From Stellaceae bacterium (lineage in GTDB: Bacteria; Pseudomonadota; Alphaproteobacteria; ATCC43930; CGMCC-115725), in NCBI GenBank assembly GCA_045802495.1, contig JBJMQW010000497.1, forward strand, positions 1-58,901: a DNA stretch of 58,901 bases, in the 5' to 3' direction. The position numbers and the translations under genes were made by a program. The notes under the pieces were generated by a model, which was not told the origin of the DNA, did no database searches, and saw nothing but the letters and a program-made list of their open reading frames with translations. Numbering within the stretch: position 1 is the stretch's first letter; each line of letters begins with the position of its first letter. Of the stretch, positions 12,970 to 21,317 are shown piece after piece.

Positions 12970-13731
12970 TTACAGGTACTTCGCGGGGCGGATCATGGCC
13001 CGCCACATATGCGCGACCGGGCTGTTGTCATAGCCGAGCCCCTGCTCCGGCTGCCGGAAGTTGCGGCCGATGACGTCGGTGAATTCCTCGAGCTCGACAT
13101 GCACGGTGGGATCGAATGAGTAGATGTCGTGTACGGTAATCTGTCGGCCCGACATGTACCATTTATGGTTCCGCATCCGCTTGTAGTCTTCCTCGATATA
13201 GGGGTCGGGGCGGTACTCCTGACCGAACGAAGTAATGTAGGATTGCGGGTATTCATAGCCGACCGACTCGTCGGGGTAGAAGCGCAACACCTGGTGGGCG
13301 CGGATTGCCCAGGTTACTTCCTCGTCGACATAGGGCTCGACCAGCTGCGCGCCCCAATAGCCGTGATCGCCGCGAATAAAGCCGATCGTCGAGATGTCGT
13401 GCAACAGGCAGGCGAGCACCATTTTCTCGGGCAGATCGGCCTTCACCGCATGCCGGGCGCTCTGCAATAGGTGCATGCAGGGGCCAAAGCGGTACTTGAA
13501 GAAATCCATCAGGGTCGGCTTTTCCGGCATTGCCGGCAGACGCGGATCGTCACCCATCAAGACGCGTGCGTTGGGATTGTCCTTCATCAGCGCGCCGGCG
13601 TTTGGCGCCGGGCTCATATCACCCTCGGCCATGCTGTAGAGGCGCGACTTGATGACGATATAGTCGAGCTCGCGGGACATCTTCTCTTCGAGCGCATCGG
13701 CACGCTGTGACAGGGTCATCGTGTCATTCAC
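12970..13731 (-). CDS. HD-domain protein, myo-inositol-oxygenase-like (MIOX/PhnZ-type diiron oxygenase superfamily)
   Basis: 253 aa. Motifs CMHLLQSARH, ACLLHDIS (HD), IRAHQVLRFYP and VHDIYSFD echo the MIOX motifs HLLQTAE / LIHDLGK / RYHSFYPWH / YDLYSK as I remember them. Confidence 0.55.
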   Translation of the reverse strand: MNDTMTLSQRADALEEKMSRELDYIVIKSRLYSMAEGDMSPAPNAGALMKDNPNARVLMGDDPRLPAMPEKPTLMDFFKYRFGPCMHLLQSARHAVKADLPEKMVLACLLHDISTIGFIRGDHGYWGAQLVEPYVDEEVTWAIRAHQVLRFYPDESVGYEYPQSYITSFGQEYRPDPYIEEDYKRMRNHKWYMSGRQITVHDIYSFDPTVHVELEEFTDVIGRNFRQPEQGLGYDNSPVAHMWRAMIRPAKYL

Positions 13732-13893: not shown

Positions 13894-14286
13894 TTATACC
13901 AGGTCGATCCTCGCACGATGCCCGGACGTGGCGGCCAGGCGACGGTCGCGAGTCAACAGCGTCGCATCCAGGGCTTCCGCAAGCGCGACATAAGCGGCGT
14001 CGTAGGCTGTCAGGTTGTGCCGCAACTCCCAGACCCGCGGCAGCAACACGTCGTGCGGGTAGCGATCCAGGGGAAACCCGACCAAATAGTCCAGAGCCAT
14101 GCGGCCGCGCGCGGGATCGATCTGCCCGATCGCCGCATACCGCCGCAACACCTGCGTCACTTCAAGATCGATCAGGTGCGGCGCATGCAGCGTTTGCTCA
14201 GTACCAAACAAACGCTCCCGCACAGCGGCAGCGGCAGGCGTCTGCAACAACGCTTCGACGAGCGCCGAGGCGTCGACCACGATCAC
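13894..14286 (-). CDS. vapC: Type II toxin VapC (PIN-domain ribonuclease)
   Basis: GTG 14286. Sequence VIVVDASALVEALL...LTAYDAAYVALAEALDATLLTRD carries the PIN acidic residues. It overlaps the upstream antitoxin gene by 4 nt. Confidence 0.85.
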   Translation of the reverse strand: MIVVDASALVEALLQTPAAAAVRERLFGTEQTLHAPHLIDLEVTQVLRRYAAIGQIDPARGRMALDYLVGFPLDRYPHDVLLPRVWELRHNLTAYDAAYVALAEALDATLLTRDRRLAATSGHRARIDLV

Positions 14287-14513
14287 CTGGAGTCGCGCTC
14301 GGTGCGGACCGCGTCCTCCGGTGACGGGATGGGGTTGGTTGCGGGAAGCTTCTCCAAGCGCTCGCGCAATTCTGCGAGAGTGGGTTTCTCGGCCGACCGG
14401 CGGAGCTCGGCGAGAAGATAATCCGAGAGGGACATGCCCGCGAGTGCGGCGCGCGACTTCAGCTTGCGATGGAGCGCTTCCGGAACATTGCGGATCTGAA
14501 TCATCGTGGACAT
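14283..14513 (-). CDS. vapB: Type II antitoxin VapB (FitA/ribbon-helix-helix-like)
   Basis: 76 aa. MSTMIQIRNVPEALHRKLKSRAALAGMSLSDYLL is the typical N-terminal DNA-binding motif. It is translationally coupled to vapC. Confidence 0.8.
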   Translation of the reverse strand: MSTMIQIRNVPEALHRKLKSRAALAGMSLSDYLLAELRRSAEKPTLAELRERLEKLPATNPIPSPEDAVRTERDSR

Positions 14514-14617: not shown

Positions 14618-15802
14618 ATGATCACAAAATTCGACAGCTCCTATTACGGCACCGCCGACATGGAAAACCTCGGCTACAAGGGCACGCCGATCAACGACCG
14701 CTGCTATTCGAAAGAGGAGCTGGCGAAGGCGATGCACAAGGTCGTGGCCTATGCCAAATGCATGGACGAGCGCGGCTACGACACCTTCTGGATGGCCGAG
14801 CATCATTTCCAGCCCGAAGGCACGGAACTGATCCCGAACCTGTTGATGATGGCGATGCACCTATGCGGCATCACCAAGAACCTCAACATCGGGTGCGGCT
14901 TCAACATCGTGCCGATGTGGCATCCGCTGCGGCTGGCCGAGGATTACGCGATGGCCGACATCCTGACCGGCGGCCGGGTCATTTTCGGCGTCGGGCGTGG
15001 TTATCACACCCGCGAAGTCGAGACCTTTGGTTCGCCGCTCCTCGACCAGAACGCCAACCGCGAAATGTTCGAGGAGGGCGTCGAGGTCCTGTTCAAGGCC
15101 TTCGAGGGGAAGCCCTTCTCACACAAGGGCAAGTACTACACGATCCCGCCCGAGGTGCCGTATCGCGGCTACACGCTCAAAGAGATCACGCTGGTGCCGG
15201 CGCCGGAGCGGCTGCCGGTCGAATGCTGGCAGCCGATCCAATCGGGCTCCGAGCGCGCCTTCGACTTCATGGCGAAATACGGGATCAGCGGCGTGATCGG
15301 CGGCGGCTCGGCCGAAGGCGGGGCGGTCGAGCGGCACATGCTCGGGTTCCAGGCGGCCTATAAGCGCCGCGGCATCGAGCTCGAACTCGGCGAGCGGCTG
15401 GCGCTCGGCTACCAGTTCCACATCGCGTCCTCCCGCGAGCAGGCGATCCGCGAGGCGGCACCCCATTACGAAGAGAACATGAAAATGTTCGGCGAATTGC
15501 GCCTGGTGCGGGCCCTGACCGACGAGCAGATCGCAGCGATGCGCGACCCGCGCCTCGTCGGCACGGTCAAATTGCCGGCGATCGAGGATGCGGTGAAGGC
15601 CGGCGGCTTTCTCGCCGGCCGGCCGGAGGACATCATCGAGCAATTGAAGGCCGTCGAGAAGCGCTATCCCGGCCTCGACCGCGTCATCTGCGCCACGCCG
15701 CTCGGCACCCCGCTCGACATCCAGCTCGCAGACCTCGACCGCTTCGCAAAGGAGGTGATCCCCGCCTTCCGGGACACCCGAACCGCCGCCGCGGCGCAGT
15801 AG
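14618..15802 (+). CDS. LLM-class flavin-dependent oxidoreductase (intact copy)
   Basis: Lies inside ORF 14558..15802; ATG 14618. Motifs GYDTFWMAEHHFQPEG and GGRVIFGVGRGYH. This is the full-length parent of the two downstream fragments. Confidence 0.85.
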   Translation: MITKFDSSYYGTADMENLGYKGTPINDRCYSKEELAKAMHKVVAYAKCMDERGYDTFWMAEHHFQPEGTELIPNLLMMAMHLCGITKNLNIGCGFNIVPMWHPLRLAEDYAMADILTGGRVIFGVGRGYHTREVETFGSPLLDQNANREMFEEGVEVLFKAFEGKPFSHKGKYYTIPPEVPYRGYTLKEITLVPAPERLPVECWQPIQSGSERAFDFMAKYGISGVIGGGSAEGGAVERHMLGFQAAYKRRGIELELGERLALGYQFHIASSREQAIREAAPHYEENMKMFGELRLVRALTDEQIAAMRDPRLVGTVKLPAIEDAVKAGGFLAGRPEDIIEQLKAVEKRYPGLDRVICATPLGTPLDIQLADLDRFAKEVIPAFRDTRTAAAAQ

Positions 15803-16153
15803 GCCCGAGGCTCAGCCGCCCGGGCGCCGGCTCGCTATCAAAGCGCGACGTTTAACGCAAATCAGGCTTTTTTTGTCGAGCATAACGGTCGCGCCATAAC
15901 TGGCCTTCGGTTTATCAGCGGCCGAACGGCCTGGACCCACGCCGGCGATCGATGTCGCCTCTAGTGGCTCCCTGTAACCAGCGGATAGCCAGCGGATAGC
16001 AGGTTGGCGAAGCTCTGAAGCTCTCGGGTCTTTGCAGTTAAGCTGAGGAACCACTCTGGGAGCGCAGCAGCCGCGATCCGAGAAGGTTTAAATGCGGTAG
16101 CTATCGCGGCGGCGGTAAACAGCCCGACTGCTCCGCGCAAGCGAGAATGAGTG

Positions 16154-17920
16154 TTAATTAAAACGTAGCCCGAAAAGTCCGCCCGTTTCGGTTGCGTCTG
16201 TGAGTCTGATTGGAAGAACGAATTGATTCACATCGAACCCGGGACCGAAGCCATCTCTCGGAAGCGCGTCTGAATTCAGCGTGACGATATATTGGTAACC
16301 AATTGAGGAGGAGTGGTCGGCACCTAGCTGGAGCGCTTTTGCTACTTGGCGCTCGTCAACGCCGTCAAACAAATGACTATCATGGATAAGGAACCCGGGA
16401 CCAAACCCACGGCGGGTTGTCAAATCCGCCAGCATCAGATCAAAGCAGAAAATTTGCATATTCGTAATACCCTTGCTGCGCTGCGCGTCGATTCGGATCT
16501 CGACGCTCGGTCCATTTGGGGTCGCGCTGACAGTTAAGCGGCCGGCTCTCTCGTATAGAGCATTGGAAAGCTCCTCGAAAACTAAGATGGCTTCCGCGAG
16601 AATTTCTTGTCGTTCGTGATGATCATTCTGAAGCGCCTTGAAGAGACGCGCTCGTTCTATGTCGAGCTCGGCTTTTGTGCTTTCGATCCGCTCCGCAGTA
16701 CCTAGCCGCTGGCGAAGTCCTTCAGCCTCCGCCTCTGCCCGCCCGGCCTCTTCCTGGAGTCGGGCATAATGCTCAAGCGCGCCCCCGGACTGCAGGATCT
16801 CCATGAGCTGGCGTCGGCGGTTGTCCAGGCTTAGGCGCCGACGGTCTCTGTCGGAAATTCGTCTTTCCGTCGCCTGAATCTCGGAGGTTAGATGTGATCG
16901 CCGGTTCCGTAGGATGGCCAAATGGAACTCCTCTACCTCCTCAAAACGGCGGGCGACTGTGCCCGGCAGAACGATCCCGGCTTCGCCATAAAGCCGCTCG
17001 AGGTTGGAGGCAGCTGGGGCCCGCTCGGTTGCGAGCGCGTCTTCGAGTTGCAGAACCAACTCCCGGTCAGCAGTATTCGCATCATTTAGAACAGAAATCT
17101 CGCGAGTAATCTCTGAGGCTTCGCGCTCGAACTCCGTGTACTCCGGGACCACGTTGAAGTTCGCGAGCTGCTCACGAAGCCGCCGTGCTCGTGCCTTGGC
17201 TATTGTTACGCGGCTCCGAAGATCAGCGGCCGTCCCAAAGTATCGCCCGAGACCACCTTCCCTCGCAGCCTTGCGCAGTTCTGCCATCGCTTTCTCTTGG
17301 GTGCGTATCTCCTGGAACTCCGAAGAAATACGGGCATCGAGCCCAAGGAGGTAGGAGACGCATACCTGTTGGTCCCAAGGTTGCTGGTTCGTCGATTGGT
17401 GCGTTGGCGAAACGAAGCCGCCACTGTTCTGGCCGCGGGCAAAGTACGAGAACAACGACCGGAATGTCGGGCGAAACCGAGTGCGCTCATTTTCGTCCGG
17501 ATCGGTGCGCAGGCCGAAGAATTCAGCGCCCAGCAGCGCGCGCCATTGTTCATTGGTGAATACCAGTTCGCCGGTTCTCGCTTCAAGCGACGGCTGAATA
17601 GGCCATGAGGATGTGTCTCCACGCAGACGAATGCGTGATGGCTTGGTGCCAGAGCGGGTCACATCGATTATCGCGCCTCCGATATCTACCCGGGCCTCGA
17701 AAGACCAAGGCGCGAGCGCGTCCGAGCGGAAGATACTCTCCTTTTCGACATTGCCGCGGAAGACGAAATGGACCAGTTCGACGAAGCTCGTTTTGCCGGC
17801 GCCGTTGCGCGACTGGCGATCGGTCGCCCCTTCGCTCTTATCTGCAAGGAGGATGTTGAGGCCGGGACCGAACGCCAAGCCCTTAAAGCTCGGGAGATCA
17901 CTGGTCACACAGTGGATCAT
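16154..17920 (-). CDS. YydD/DUF2326-type SMC-like ABC ATPase (the ATPase class of ABC-three-component systems), without partner genes
   Basis: 588 aa. N-terminus MIHCVTSDLPSFKGLAFGPGLNILLADK, Walker A NGAGKTSFVELV, a ~300-aa Arg/Glu/Leu coiled-coil middle, and a C-terminal block GFLIHDSHLFDGVDERQVAKAL...YIVTLNSD. G+C is visibly lower than in the flanks. Confidence 0.7.
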   Translation of the reverse strand: MIHCVTSDLPSFKGLAFGPGLNILLADKSEGATDRQSRNGAGKTSFVELVHFVFRGNVEKESIFRSDALAPWSFEARVDIGGAIIDVTRSGTKPSRIRLRGDTSSWPIQPSLEARTGELVFTNEQWRALLGAEFFGLRTDPDENERTRFRPTFRSLFSYFARGQNSGGFVSPTHQSTNQQPWDQQVCVSYLLGLDARISSEFQEIRTQEKAMAELRKAAREGGLGRYFGTAADLRSRVTIAKARARRLREQLANFNVVPEYTEFEREASEITREISVLNDANTADRELVLQLEDALATERAPAASNLERLYGEAGIVLPGTVARRFEEVEEFHLAILRNRRSHLTSEIQATERRISDRDRRRLSLDNRRRQLMEILQSGGALEHYARLQEEAGRAEAEAEGLRQRLGTAERIESTKAELDIERARLFKALQNDHHERQEILAEAILVFEELSNALYERAGRLTVSATPNGPSVEIRIDAQRSKGITNMQIFCFDLMLADLTTRRGFGPGFLIHDSHLFDGVDERQVAKALQLGADHSSSIGYQYIVTLNSDALPRDGFGPGFDVNQFVLPIRLTDATETGGLFGLRFN

Positions 17921-17931
17921 TATTGGGCCTT

Positions 17932-17945
17932 GCGGATTAATCCGC
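17932..17945. promoter_or_regulatory. Perfect 14-bp palindrome GCGGATTAATCCGC, 12-25 nt upstream of the ATPase start codon
   Basis: Read directly from the sequence. No Shine-Dalgarno lies between it and the ATG. It could be an operator or a 5'-UTR hairpin. Confidence 0.3.
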
Positions 17946-17979
17946 GCTCAAACTCTACCGCGCCTACGATGAAGAGGAG

Positions 17980-18744
17980 GTCGAGCGCCGCTCCTCGACC
18001 AGAACGCCAACCGCGAGATGTTCGAGGAGGGTGTCGAGGTCCTGTTCACGGCGTTCGAGGGCAAGCCGTTCTCGCACCAGGGCAAGTACTACACGATCCC
18101 GCCCGAGGTGCCGTATCGCGGCTACACCTTGAAGGAGATCACCTTGGTGCCGGCGCGGGAGCGGCTACCGGTCGAATGCTGGCAGCCGATCCAGAGCGGC
18201 TCGGAGCGCGCCTTCGACTTCATGGCCAAATACGGCATCGGCGGCGGTTCGGCCGAGGGGGGCGCGGTCGAGCGGCACATGATCGGGTTCCAGCAGGTCT
18301 ATAAGTGCCGCGGCATCGATCTCGAACTCGGCGAGCGGCTGGCGCTCGGCTACCAGTTCCACATCGCGCCCTCCCGCGAGCAGGCGATCCGCGAGGCCGC
18401 CCCGCATTACGAAGAAAACATGAAGATGTTCGGCGAACTGCGCCTGGTGCGGGCCTTGACCGACGAACAGATCGCGGCGATGCGCGACCCGAAACTGGTC
18501 GGCACGGTCAGGCTGCCGACGATCGAGGATGCGGTGAAGGCGGGCGGCTTCCCTCGCCGGCCGCCCCGAGGACATCATCGAGCAATTGAAGGCCGTCGAG
18601 AAGCGCTATCCCGGCCTCGACCGCGTCATCTGCGCCACACCCCTCGGCACCCCGCTCGACATCCAGCTCGCCGACCTCGACCGCTTCGCAAGGGAGGTGA
18701 CCCCCGCCTTCCGCGACACCCGAACCGCCGCCGCAGCGCAGTAG
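17980..18744 (+). pseudogene. Truncated, frameshifted copy of the 3' ~770 nt of the LLM gene (equivalent to 15033..15802)
   Basis: By-eye alignment shows about 24 mismatches in the first ~255 aligned nt, mostly at third codon positions. There is a 12-nt in-frame deletion (ISGVIGGGS -> IGGGS) and a frameshift near 18550-18570. No 5' half is present. Confidence 0.85.
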
Positions 18745-18827
18745 ACCTGGATTAGCGGCCGGTCGCTCCCTCGGCGATATCAGCGCCGCCCGCGGCGGTC
18801 ATGCCTCCCGTGTCGCGGCAGCGGACG

Positions 18828-20786
18828 TCAGATTTCGACTTCGGCGCCGAGTTCGATGACCTGATCGGCGGGGATCCGGAAGAACTCGGTCGGATGTGTC
18901 GCGATGCGGGTCAAACCCGCATAGAGACGCTCACGCCATCGCGCCATCCCCGGGCGCGCGGTCGATTTGACATTGGTCCGTCCGACAAAGAAGGACATTT
19001 GATGGAGATCATGATCGAGCCCCGGGATATGAGCACGGGCAAGTTCGCGCGGAACGTTCGGCGTCTGCGCAAAGCCGAAATGGATGTCGATCTGCCAGAA
19101 GCCTGGGCCGAGCTGATGCGCACGTATTCGATCTTGTCGCGCCACCCGCGGGATATTCTCGGTGACGATGCGGACAAACAGCACCGTCTTGTGCAACACT
19201 TTGTTGTGCTTGAAGTTGTTCAGCAATGTTACCGGCACGTTGTCGGTCTGGTTCGTCAGATAGACGGCAATGCCCGACACGCGGGCCTCGCAGGCGCTGT
19301 CTGCGGTCGCGAGAAATGAGGAGAGGGGAACGGGCCGCGCCGACAGTTGCGCGAAGATAAGCTGGCGCCCCTCGCGCCACGTCGACATCACGATGAACAC
19401 AACCAACCCGATCGCCAACGGAAACCAGCCACCGCTCGGTATCTTCAGCGCATTGGAAGAAAACAGCGCGAGATCGACGAGCCCCAGCGGCAGGAAGGCC
19501 GCCGCTACGGCCGGCCATCGCCATCCCCAAACGCGGTGCGCCACTGCTACGGCGAGCACGGTCGTGATCACCATCGTCCCGGTAACGGCAAAGCCGTAAG
19601 CCGCAGCAAGCGCGCTCGAGCTTTGGAAGCCGAGGACCAGCGTCAGGACAGCGATGAGAAGCAGCCAATTGAGCTGCGGGATGTAAATCTGCCCGGATAT
19701 ATGGGCCGAGGTTTGCAGCACGTCGAGCCGCGGCATCAGGTCGAGCTGCATCGCTTGCCGGGTCAGCGAGAAGGCACCCGAGATTACGGCTTGGGACGCG
19801 ATGACGGTTGCCGCCGTGGCCAACACCACGAGGGGCAATATCGCCCAATCGGCCGTCATGCGAAAAAACGGGTTTTCGATAGCGCTGGCGTCGGCGAGAA
19901 CCAAGGCGCCCTGGCCGAGATAATTGAGCACGAGCGCCGGCAGAACCACCGCGAACCACGCGGCCCTGATCGGAAAGCGGCCGAAATGACCCATATCCGC
20001 GTAGAGCGCTTCGCCGCCGGTGATCGCCAGTGCGACGGCGCCGAGCACGACAAAGCTGATCGCCGGGTGGGCGGTGAAAAAACCCACGGCGTGGGTCGGA
20101 CTAACCGCCGCGAGGATGCTAGGGGAAGCGCCGATTTGGATCAGCCCGAAGATGCCCAGCACAGCGAACCACAGCGCCATGACGGGGCCGAAATATTGGC
20201 CAACGCGTTCCGTGCCGCGCTTTTGCACGATAAAGAGCGCGAGCAGCACGACTACAGTCAGTGGCAGGATGAAGGGTTTGAGGGCGGGTATCGCCACCTC
20301 GAGACCCTCGACGGCGCTCAGCACGGAAATCGCCGGCGTGATCATGCTGTCGCCATAAAACAACGCCGCTCCCGCCAGGCCGAGCATGGTCAGGACCCAG
20401 GGTAGGTGCTTACTGGGAGCGCCCCAGAGCGCCAGCGCGAGGAGGGCAAATATTCCCCCTTCGCCATGGTTGTCGGCGCGCATGATCAGGAGGACGTATT
20501 TGACGGCGACCACGAGCAGGAGGGCCCAAATCAAGCAGGACAAAACGCCGAGAACGTTTTCCTGCGTTAACGCCAGGCCGTGCTCAGGGTTGAAGCACTC
20601 GCGAAACGTGTAGACGGGGCTTGTCCCGATATCGCCGAAGACAACGCCGAGTGCCGCGACAACAAGGCCACCGCGGCCTGGCGGGGTCTCCTGGTCATCC
20701 TCTGCCAGCTGTTCGGTCGGGCGGCTTGTCGCGAGCGCTTGTTGCCTTGCTTCGCCAGAGACGACCTCGCCGGAATGATCCCCCAT
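18828..20786 (-). CDS. kup: KUP/HAK/KT-family potassium uptake transporter
   Basis: Lies inside ORF 18828..21185. Start moved to ATG 20786, preceded by AGGAG. Motif VVFGDIGTSPVYTF and ~12 TM segments. The longer ORF prefix is antisense of LLM fragment 3. Confidence 0.9.
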   Translation of the reverse strand: MGDHSGEVVSGEARQQALATSRPTEQLAEDDQETPPGRGGLVVAALGVVFGDIGTSPVYTFRECFNPEHGLALTQENVLGVLSCLIWALLLVVAVKYVLLIMRADNHGEGGIFALLALALWGAPSKHLPWVLTMLGLAGAALFYGDSMITPAISVLSAVEGLEVAIPALKPFILPLTVVVLLALFIVQKRGTERVGQYFGPVMALWFAVLGIFGLIQIGASPSILAAVSPTHAVGFFTAHPAISFVVLGAVALAITGGEALYADMGHFGRFPIRAAWFAVVLPALVLNYLGQGALVLADASAIENPFFRMTADWAILPLVVLATAATVIASQAVISGAFSLTRQAMQLDLMPRLDVLQTSAHISGQIYIPQLNWLLLIAVLTLVLGFQSSSALAAAYGFAVTGTMVITTVLAVAVAHRVWGWRWPAVAAAFLPLGLVDLALFSSNALKIPSGGWFPLAIGLVVFIVMSTWREGRQLIFAQLSARPVPLSSFLATADSACEARVSGIAVYLTNQTDNVPVTLLNNFKHNKVLHKTVLFVRIVTENIPRVARQDRIRAHQLGPGFWQIDIHFGFAQTPNVPRELARAHIPGLDHDLHQMSFFVGRTNVKSTARPGMARWRERLYAGLTRIATHPTEFFRIPADQVIELGAEVEI

Positions 20787-20940
20787 GCCCCGCTCCTGTT
20801 TTCCGCCGATCGGTTCACAACTTTTGGGATTGTTAAGGCGAACGCGAGCCCACGACCAGAGAACCCTAATACGGCTGTAGCGAAACCGGCACCAGATGAC
20901 GTCCAAGGAAGCGGATGACGGACGGCCTATGCCCGCCCGG

Positions 20941-21317
20941 ATCGTCAACTCGAACTGGGCGAGCGGCTGGCGCTCGGCTACCGGTTCCACATCGCCTCGA
21001 GTCGCGAGCAGGCGATCCGCGAGGCCGCCGCGCATTACGAAGAAAACATGAAGATGTTCGATGAATTGCGCCTCGTGCGGGCCTTGACCGACGAGCAGAT
21101 CGCGGGCGACCAGCGGCTGGTCGGCACGTCGAGGACGCGTCAAAGGGCCGGCGGTTTTTCTCGCCGGCCGCCCGGAGGACATCATCGAGCCAGCAGAAGG
21201 CGGTCGAGAAGCGCCATCCCGGTCTCGACCGCGTCATTTCCGCCGCGCCGCTCGGCATCCCAGCTCGAAGACCTTGACCGGTTTGCGAAGGAGGTGATAC
21301 CGGCCTTCCGCGGTTGA
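20941..21317 (+). pseudogene. Second, more decayed copy of the LLM gene 3' end (equivalent to ~15374..15802)
   Basis: Sequence ELGERLALGYRFHIASSREQAIREAAAHYEENMKMFDELRLVRALTDEQIA is followed by several indels or frameshifts. The terminal motif LDRFAKEVIPAFR is retained. It ends 43 nt before the amidohydrolase start. Confidence 0.8.

Follow-up and report, generated by a model that had tools for sequence, protein, structure and literature searches.

How an intact ATPase gene comes to stand alone when its relatives belong to a three-gene defence operon, and whether it can still serve a purpose there, is the question raised by a 58,901-nt stretch of DNA from a Stellaceae bacterium (GenBank assembly GCA_045802495.1, contig JBJMQW010000497.1), the whole of which is hereafter called the window. 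The gene encodes an ATPase of the ABC-three-component (ABC-3C) class. ABC-3C systems were reportedly treated by Krishnan, Burroughs, Iyer and Aravind in 2020. The names ABC-3C, DdmABC and Lamassu LmuACB refer to one superfamily (bioRxiv 10.1101/2025.03.14.643221; PMC10586767). A preliminary description of the window, made from the sequence alone, considered a minimal stand-alone variant, a copy working in trans with unlinked partners and a remnant that had lost its partners, and took the intact open reading frame (ORF) as favouring retained function. We find that window positions 16090..17987 are most probably the remnant of a recently truncated Lamassu-type (LmuACB/ABC-3C) operon, in which a defence-incompetent sensor ATPase has been left behind.

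The 588-aa ORF of the preliminary description was found as described, with its Walker A motif (NGAGKTS, aa 39-45), its coiled coil and its C-terminal block (FLIHDSHLFDGVDERQ, aa 510-525); it starts with ATG and holds neither a frameshift nor an internal stop codon. The SKG at aa 482-484 and the FLIHDSHLFDGVD at aa 510-522 both fall on invariant columns of the family alignment. The proposed YydD/DUF2326 identity was likewise substantiated. Pfam DUF2326 (PF10088) matches aa 452-587 at E 1.9e-40, its score of 138.3 bits being well above the gathering cut-off (28.7), so that the protein combines the PF10088 head with Walker A, coiled coil, and C-terminal signature and Walker B/D-loop, as in DUF2326/YydD-type ABC-3C ATPases. 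The PADLOC model PDC-M68B matches the protein over its full length (E 3.6e-162) and the LmuB model more weakly (1.9e-11), which identifies it as the SMC-like LmuB component. Identity to its homologues in the databases ranges from 75 to 89%, and of the 119 listed, 109 share the length of exactly 588 aa. They are proteins of Alphaproteobacteria, for instance Bosea, Methylocella, Roseiarcus, Novosphingobium, Sphingomonas and Lichenibacterium, and are called either 'YydD (DUF2326 family)' or 'ABC-three component system protein' by their sources. The ATPase is thus a small LmuB of the CTD10/MC6 class, and fits the subfamily described as 'smaller LmuB, CTD6-12, MC2-8' (bioRxiv 10.1101/2025.03.14.643221). 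The locus is of an already known kind, as the family is named by NCBI and both components are modelled by PADLOC.

The structural comparison points the same way. It should be noted that the AlphaFold2 model was built from a shallow alignment of 22 sequences, all at least 75% identical, and is poor (pLDDT 63, pTM 0.32), hence we take the Foldseek matches as qualitative support only. The model shows, at low confidence, a long helical middle at approximately aa 200-456. Its top match is the integrative model of Bacillus subtilis YydD-YydB (9a6c_A, E 2.4e-11, 586 aa), followed by the Smc head, the LmuB chains of type II Lamassu (9uxh_F and 9hqu_A), Rad50 and JetC. YydD (DUF2326, COG5293) shares the DUF2326 domain at the C-terminal head, while the identity is 16% and the TM-score 0.23, which is low since the model is poor. 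In B. subtilis the partners of YydD are encoded alongside it. A sequence search of the PDB with HMMER gave no matches for the ATPase, either by single sequence or by family profile, and similarity to the solved LmuB proteins is thus undetectable by this method.

Three peculiarities of the ATPase should be mentioned. The residue following the Walker B Asp is a Ser and not the canonical catalytic Glu of ABC ATPases (FLIHDSH or FLMHDST), so that the family reads hhhhD-S where Lamassu has D-E. The Ser is invariant in the 22-sequence alignment and also present in L039, a 35% identical homologue; it is a family-wide oddity and not specific to the window. Unlike in Lamassu, the coiled coil has no cysteine zinc-hook CxxC. 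Further, the Pfam model CTD10 of ABC-3C systems, which describes a C-terminal domain of the effectors, matches aa 291-410 of the ATPase (E 1.9e-14), at the apex of the coiled coil, and does so in all 119 listed homologues as well. As BLASTP of the effector CTD10 region against the ATPase found no pairwise similarity, we do not claim homology between the two.

The gene differs in composition from its surroundings, as the preliminary description had noticed. Its G+C content is 57.4% and its G+C at third codon positions (GC3) 62%, against 64.2% and 88% for the neighbouring luciferase-like monooxygenase (LLM) gene, 64.7% and 80% for an amidohydrolase gene, and a G+C content of 62.5% for the whole window; GC3 in the adjoining genes ranges from 76 to 88%. 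As both values lie below those of the flanking genes and the G+C content below that of the window, the ATPase gene is compositionally foreign.

To see what a complete locus of this family looks like, we compared 27 distinct related loci with complete upstream DNA. The full operon was found in all four gene-context loci (L001 from Bosea sp. RAC05, L002 from a Methylocella metagenome-assembled genome (MAG), L005 and L007), in 15 further loci from species genomes, in seven further loci from metagenome contigs and on the conjugative plasmid pBAR4 of Sphingomonas bisphenolicum (NZ_AP018822.1). All 27 carry the genes in the order effector, middle component 6 (MC6), ATPase, and a solo ATPase was found in none (0/27), in accordance with the expectation that genes for a small middle component and an effector usually accompany these ATPases. 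The effector has approximately 302-314 aa with a C-terminal CTD10, MC6 has 81 aa, and the ATPase gene is the last of the three. In the gene-called or annotated loci (L001, L002, L005, L007 and pBAR4) adjacent genes overlap by 4 nt at each of the two junctions. Two additional loci cut by contig ends, L006 and L038, still show MC6. The closest relatives of the window ATPase, L006 and L030 (89-90% identity), both retain MC6, accompanied in L030 by the effector. The same order of effector, small middle component and SMC/Rad50-like ATPase of about 600 aa is found in type II Lamassu/DdmABC/LmuACB of Vibrio cholerae and Salmonella enterica.

Several of the related loci lie in backbones of integrative and conjugative elements or plasmids, with a type IV secretion system coupling protein, a relaxase or an integrase. 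On pBAR4 the operon adjoins AbiE and relaxase genes and is annotated as such, as ABC-three component system protein, middle component 6 and ABC-three component system protein; it aligns to the window with 71% nucleotide identity over 84% of the query, and is complete where the window copy is cut within MC6. The effector of the homologous operons corresponds to PADLOC PDC-M68A (5.8e-22), the partner component of the PDC-M68B that the window ATPase matches end to end; we found no mention of PDC-M68 in the literature. In the effector (L002 6854-7762, L001 6818-7762) the N-terminal region of approximately 170 aa has no Pfam domain, its sole match being a weak one to PADLOC LmuA (E 0.0024), and contains a conserved GDLKCDG which may resemble a PD-(D/E)xK nuclease motif.

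In the window, on the other hand, only the end of the middle component gene is left. The approximately 67 nt upstream of the ATPase ATG align with the 3' ends of the MC6 genes in L001, L002 and L005, and the TGA stop codon of this remnant overlaps the ATG as in the intact operons. The distance of about 60 nt previously reported between the ATPase start and an LLM gene fragment was close to what we measured (65-67 nt), but what fills the interval is the tail of the MC6 gene and not a spacer. By blastn, the foreign block 16090..17987 (1898 nt) shows 85.2% identity with both L030 (2089..3985) and L006 (78..1974); it begins near codon 59 of MC6, takes in the ATPase gene and ends about 63-64 nt beyond the stop codon of the latter. 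At the upstream end of the block, MC6 homology passes through a short microhomology (Table 1) into homology with the LLM gene, at position 15033; the homology between LLM and its truncated copy, here called LLM', starts at 17986. Because the 3' remnant of MC6 directly abuts this microhomology junction, we conclude that the operon was cut inside MC6 by an illegitimate join.

Searches with tblastn, using four effectors and four MC6 proteins as queries against the 58.9-kb window, which is one contig of the genome, detected the MC6 remnant (3e-07), no further MC6 sequence and no effector gene. PADLOC found no match among the neighbouring ORFs of the ATPase. The window was thus correctly described as partner-less. 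Relative to a Lamassu/ABC-3C system it holds the LmuB-like ATPase and the last 22 or so codons of an 81-aa adjacent MC6 gene, and is without an effector carrying CTD10; relative to PDC-M68, where components A and B are co-located, B is present and A absent. With the cut the operon thus lost its effector and two thirds of MC6, together with anything that was located further upstream.

These findings bear on the suggestion that the ATPase is a true minimal stand-alone ABC-3C variant with a role independent of partners, for instance as a DNA-end binding or repair factor or as a decoy. The ORF is intact, and LmuC is absent from some Lamassu systems (PMC10586767), both of which would suit such a design. 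But an origin by cutting of a three-gene operon is evident from the 67 nt left of MC6 and from the illegitimate join, solo copies do not recur in any other lineage examined in the neighbourhood comparison, and the ATPase is an ordinary member of its family, 89% identical to operon-borne copies. We therefore regard a stand-alone design as very improbable.

The arrangement could also be a chimeric MAG assembly, created from repeated LLM segments, as the window seems to represent one entire metagenome-assembled contig and contains 770-nt repeats of 90% identity. However, the junction was found again in other samples. The 90% cluster of the ATPase includes near-identical metagenome copies, and with these the truncated allele was sampled four times (the window, P0123, L009 and L041). 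L009 (JGI 3300067513) matches window positions 15867-18166 and L041 (JGI 3300061856) positions 17096-18389, both at 99.6% identity and across the MC6/LLM' junction. As two independently assembled contigs reproduce it at this identity, the junction is not an assembly artefact. A third contig, P0123 (JGI 3300067032), has a gene on the opposite strand exactly 97 nt upstream, with the same spacing as in the window. We consider an assembly error hardly credible as the cause of the solo arrangement. The exact 26-nt junction pattern, present in L009 and the window, had no matches in the metagenome contig collection, to which the samples of L009 and L041 do not belong.

We then suggest the following history for the truncated operon. 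The foreign block would be a 1.9-kb piece of a CTD10/MC6-class Lamassu operon (LmuA-LmuC-LmuB; PADLOC candidate PDC-M68) borne on a mobile element. In solved Lamassu complexes two LmuB together with LmuC sequester the C-terminal domain of LmuA, and sensing of DNA ends frees LmuA, which oligomerises to an active nuclease (bioRxiv 10.1101/2025.03.14.643221). By analogy, in the intact system two LmuB with MC6 as LmuC would keep LmuA inactive through its CTD10, and upon sensing of DNA ends or aberrant phage or plasmid DNA the effector would be freed, oligomerise and attack cellular targets, so that the infection is aborted. Microhomology-mediated illegitimate recombination has then probably fused MC6 at about codon 59 to the middle of an LLM gene copy, in what looks like a recombination-prone islet with other LLM fragments, kup and a VapBC-like module. 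The effector gene and two thirds of MC6 would have been deleted by this event, presumably along with the promoter of the operon, and a sensor ATPase without an output module would be all that was left. As the effector and the middle component are gone, no output and hence no defence would be expected; every Lamassu component was essential wherever tested (PMC10586767). The event is probably recent, such that the ORF is still open here while sister copies are already frameshifted.

Such frameshifts were indeed detected. L009 and L041 share a 1-nt deletion (GAGAAAGCG to GAGAAGCG) that shifts the ATPase frame at about codon 211 and leaves ORFs of 237 and 332 aa, hence two of the four sampled copies of the truncated allele are frameshifted. 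The substitution pattern points in the same direction. Background omega (the ratio of non-synonymous, dN, to synonymous, dS, divergence) in the ATPase family is 0.02-0.11, with 0.089 for the window against L006. Within the truncated allele the whole gene was compared between the window and L009 only, and the four non-synonymous and four synonymous differences give an omega of about 0.33; omega of 0.05 or less is rejected (p ~0.013), and neutrality is not. The private replacements R163G and E242K of the window ATPase fall on columns at least 97% conserved in the 119 homologues on which conservation was scored. Lineage-specific residues number 34 in the truncated lineage and 16 in the operon-borne sister clade (p = 0.015), and the neighbour-joining amino-acid branch of the truncated lineage from the common node is approximately 1.7 times as long (0.066 against 0.038). 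Constraint on the truncated ATPase looks relaxed, the tests being individually weak and all pointing the same way. Some 18 excess replacements are equivalent to approximately 1-1.5% neutral divergence, and at 0.5-1% an ORF of this length would stay intact with a probability of 0.04-0.5. After so little neutral time the intact ORF is unremarkable.

The retained function favoured in the preliminary description is thus opposed by the MC6 remnant at an illegitimate junction, by the complete operons of all 27 related loci, by the frameshifted copies and by the relaxed substitution pattern. The preliminary description had also named what would mark the locus as a dead remnant, and this is what we observed: homologues always in three-gene operons, along with lesions and signs of relaxed selection in the truncated lineage.

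Several observations nevertheless weigh against a remnant without function. The window ATPase retains every family-invariant residue, those of Walker A, of the SKG signature and of the hhhhD Walker B among them, and the ATPase of P0123 is intact. The frameshift sits in a 3-nt A run (window 17290-17292) and is known from metagenome assemblies only, of apparently related samples. With eight substitutions, the selection tests leave an omega of about 0.1 unrejected, and the deviations of the window ATPase at conserved columns number six, which is inside the family range (a sister in an intact operon, P0002, has five). An AAGG resembling a Shine-Dalgarno motif is retained before the ATPase ATG, and no terminator-like site was seen between the ATPase gene and kup on the same strand, hence residual expression of the ATPase, for example by read-through from kup, is possible. 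A promoter scan of the locus detected no sigma-70-like site, which says little for an alphaproteobacterium.

The open frame, the invariant motifs, the Shine-Dalgarno-like motif and the possible read-through also speak for an orphan ATPase that works in trans with an LmuA/LmuC pair of the CTD10/MC6 type or with another Lamassu elsewhere in the genome, or that serves as a spare sensor subunit; since one 58.9-kb contig was covered, unlinked LmuA and LmuC are possible, and this too weighs against a dead remnant. Working in trans nevertheless seems unlikely to us. The genes are contiguous in 27/27 related loci, with 4-nt overlaps where genes were called, which argues for a co-translated, stoichiometric assembly; moreover, the window yielded no effector, frameshifted alleles of the locus persist in the population and constraint shows signs of relaxation. 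That the truncated allele is maintained in some of the population because the orphan sensor has gained a use of its own (as a DNA-end binder, a dominant-negative modulator or a spare Lamassu subunit) and is expressed by read-through from kup, we judge to be quite improbable.

The positions of the remnant and of the surrounding features are collected in Table 1.

Table 1. Features of the truncated operon and its surroundings in the window
Feature	Position	Strand	Basis or remark
LmuB-like SMC/Rad50-type ABC ATPase, 588 aa, intact (DUF2326/YydD family; PDC-M68B)	16154..17920	minus	ORF, Pfam, PADLOC, homologues, Foldseek
MC6 (LmuC-type middle component) remnant, last ~22 codons, ALDLLFIVGAVEFERGLIRKAQ*	17917..17987	minus	DNA alignment, translation, tblastn
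Illegitimate junction between MC6 remnant and 5'-truncated LLM copy, 4-5 nt microhomology (GCGCC)	17985..17990		alignments; same in L009 and L041
3' flank, 64 nt homologous to DNA 3' of the ATPase gene in the nearest intact operons; end of foreign block	16090..16153	minus	blastn
Spacer of 284 nt between LLM stop and foreign block, no credible ORF	15806..16089		ORF, Pfam, PADLOC and Rfam scans, blastn
LLM, intact luciferase-like monooxygenase	14618..15802	plus	ORF; homologues
LLM', 5'-truncated frameshifted copy of the 3' 770 nt of LLM (equivalent to 15033..15805), upstream boundary of remnant	17986..18747	plus	90.2% identity, 2 gaps
LLM'', 3' ~390 nt of LLM	20923-21310	same orientation as LLM	alignment; 79% identical, ~10 indels
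kup K+ transporter, 785-aa ORF	18828-21185	minus	Pfam K_trans (1.8e-183) and K_trans_C
FitA-like ribbon-helix-helix antitoxin (76 aa) and PIN-domain protein, VapBC-type pair	13894-14513	minus	immediately upstream of LLM
HD-domain protein	12970-13731

On the downstream side, the 350 nt at 15803-16153 contain just two minus-strand ORFs of 80 and 59 aa, neither of them convincing nor matched by Pfam or PADLOC, and the region has no Rfam match. The earlier remark that no convincing ORF is found here stood, but it concerned the wrong side, as the partner genes of this family lie upstream. The spacer between the LLM stop and the foreign block had no match among the related DNA compared, nor in Rfam, Pfam or PADLOC; it contains the 11-mer GCTATCCGCTG twice in tandem at 15979-16000 (minus strand), which may be due to chance.

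The gene order of the islet is the FitA/PIN pair (minus), LLM, spacer, ATPase (minus), LLM', kup (minus), LLM'' and amidohydrolase. The best 120 homologues listed for LLM all have PF00296 and are 84-91% identical (one 81%), several being named Stellaceae; by these homologues the host belongs with Stellaceae-like soil Alphaproteobacteria. We tried the closest LLM-bearing contigs for which DNA was at hand (L026-L029) as a possible state before the insertion, and rejected them as they share the LLM gene alone with the window. Between LLM and LLM' dS is 0.27, dN 0.036 and omega 0.13, with 13:9:39 differences by codon position and two indels. The divergence of about 10% could be read as an old insertion, in which case selection would have kept the ATPase ORF open; this was rejected since the differences are mostly synonymous and therefore arose while both were functional alleles, before fragmentation. 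The pattern is consistent with LLM' being a young fragment of a divergent functional allele, and with a recent mosaic event.

Altogether three directly oriented copies of the 3' part of LLM are present, and each of the two truncated ones faces the 5' end of a minus-strand gene, the ATPase gene and kup, respectively. The truncated copies have omega values of 0.13-0.14, with mostly synonymous differences, and thus appear to derive from divergent functional alleles. This stack of copies suggests either serial insertion-duplication or homology-anchored illegitimate recombination with DNA of related strains. As for kup, the gene is intact and its ORF represents a normal Kup of about 653 aa, with the start probably near 20789; the seeming extension of 130 aa at the N-terminus is an antisense reading through LLM''.

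The biological weight of the finding is small, while it has some value for annotation. An intact ORF with all its motifs is no proof of function when the event behind it is young, and the partners of this ATPase family should be sought upstream, because the ATPase gene is the last of its operon. A functional orphan would make the solo LmuB interesting, given that no component of Lamassu proved dispensable wherever tested (PMC10586767), though the evidence points the opposite way. The locus rather offers a clean, datable case of how illegitimate recombination, in a recombination hot spot, strips a defence operon of its effector, with intact and frameshifted alleles side by side in soil populations.

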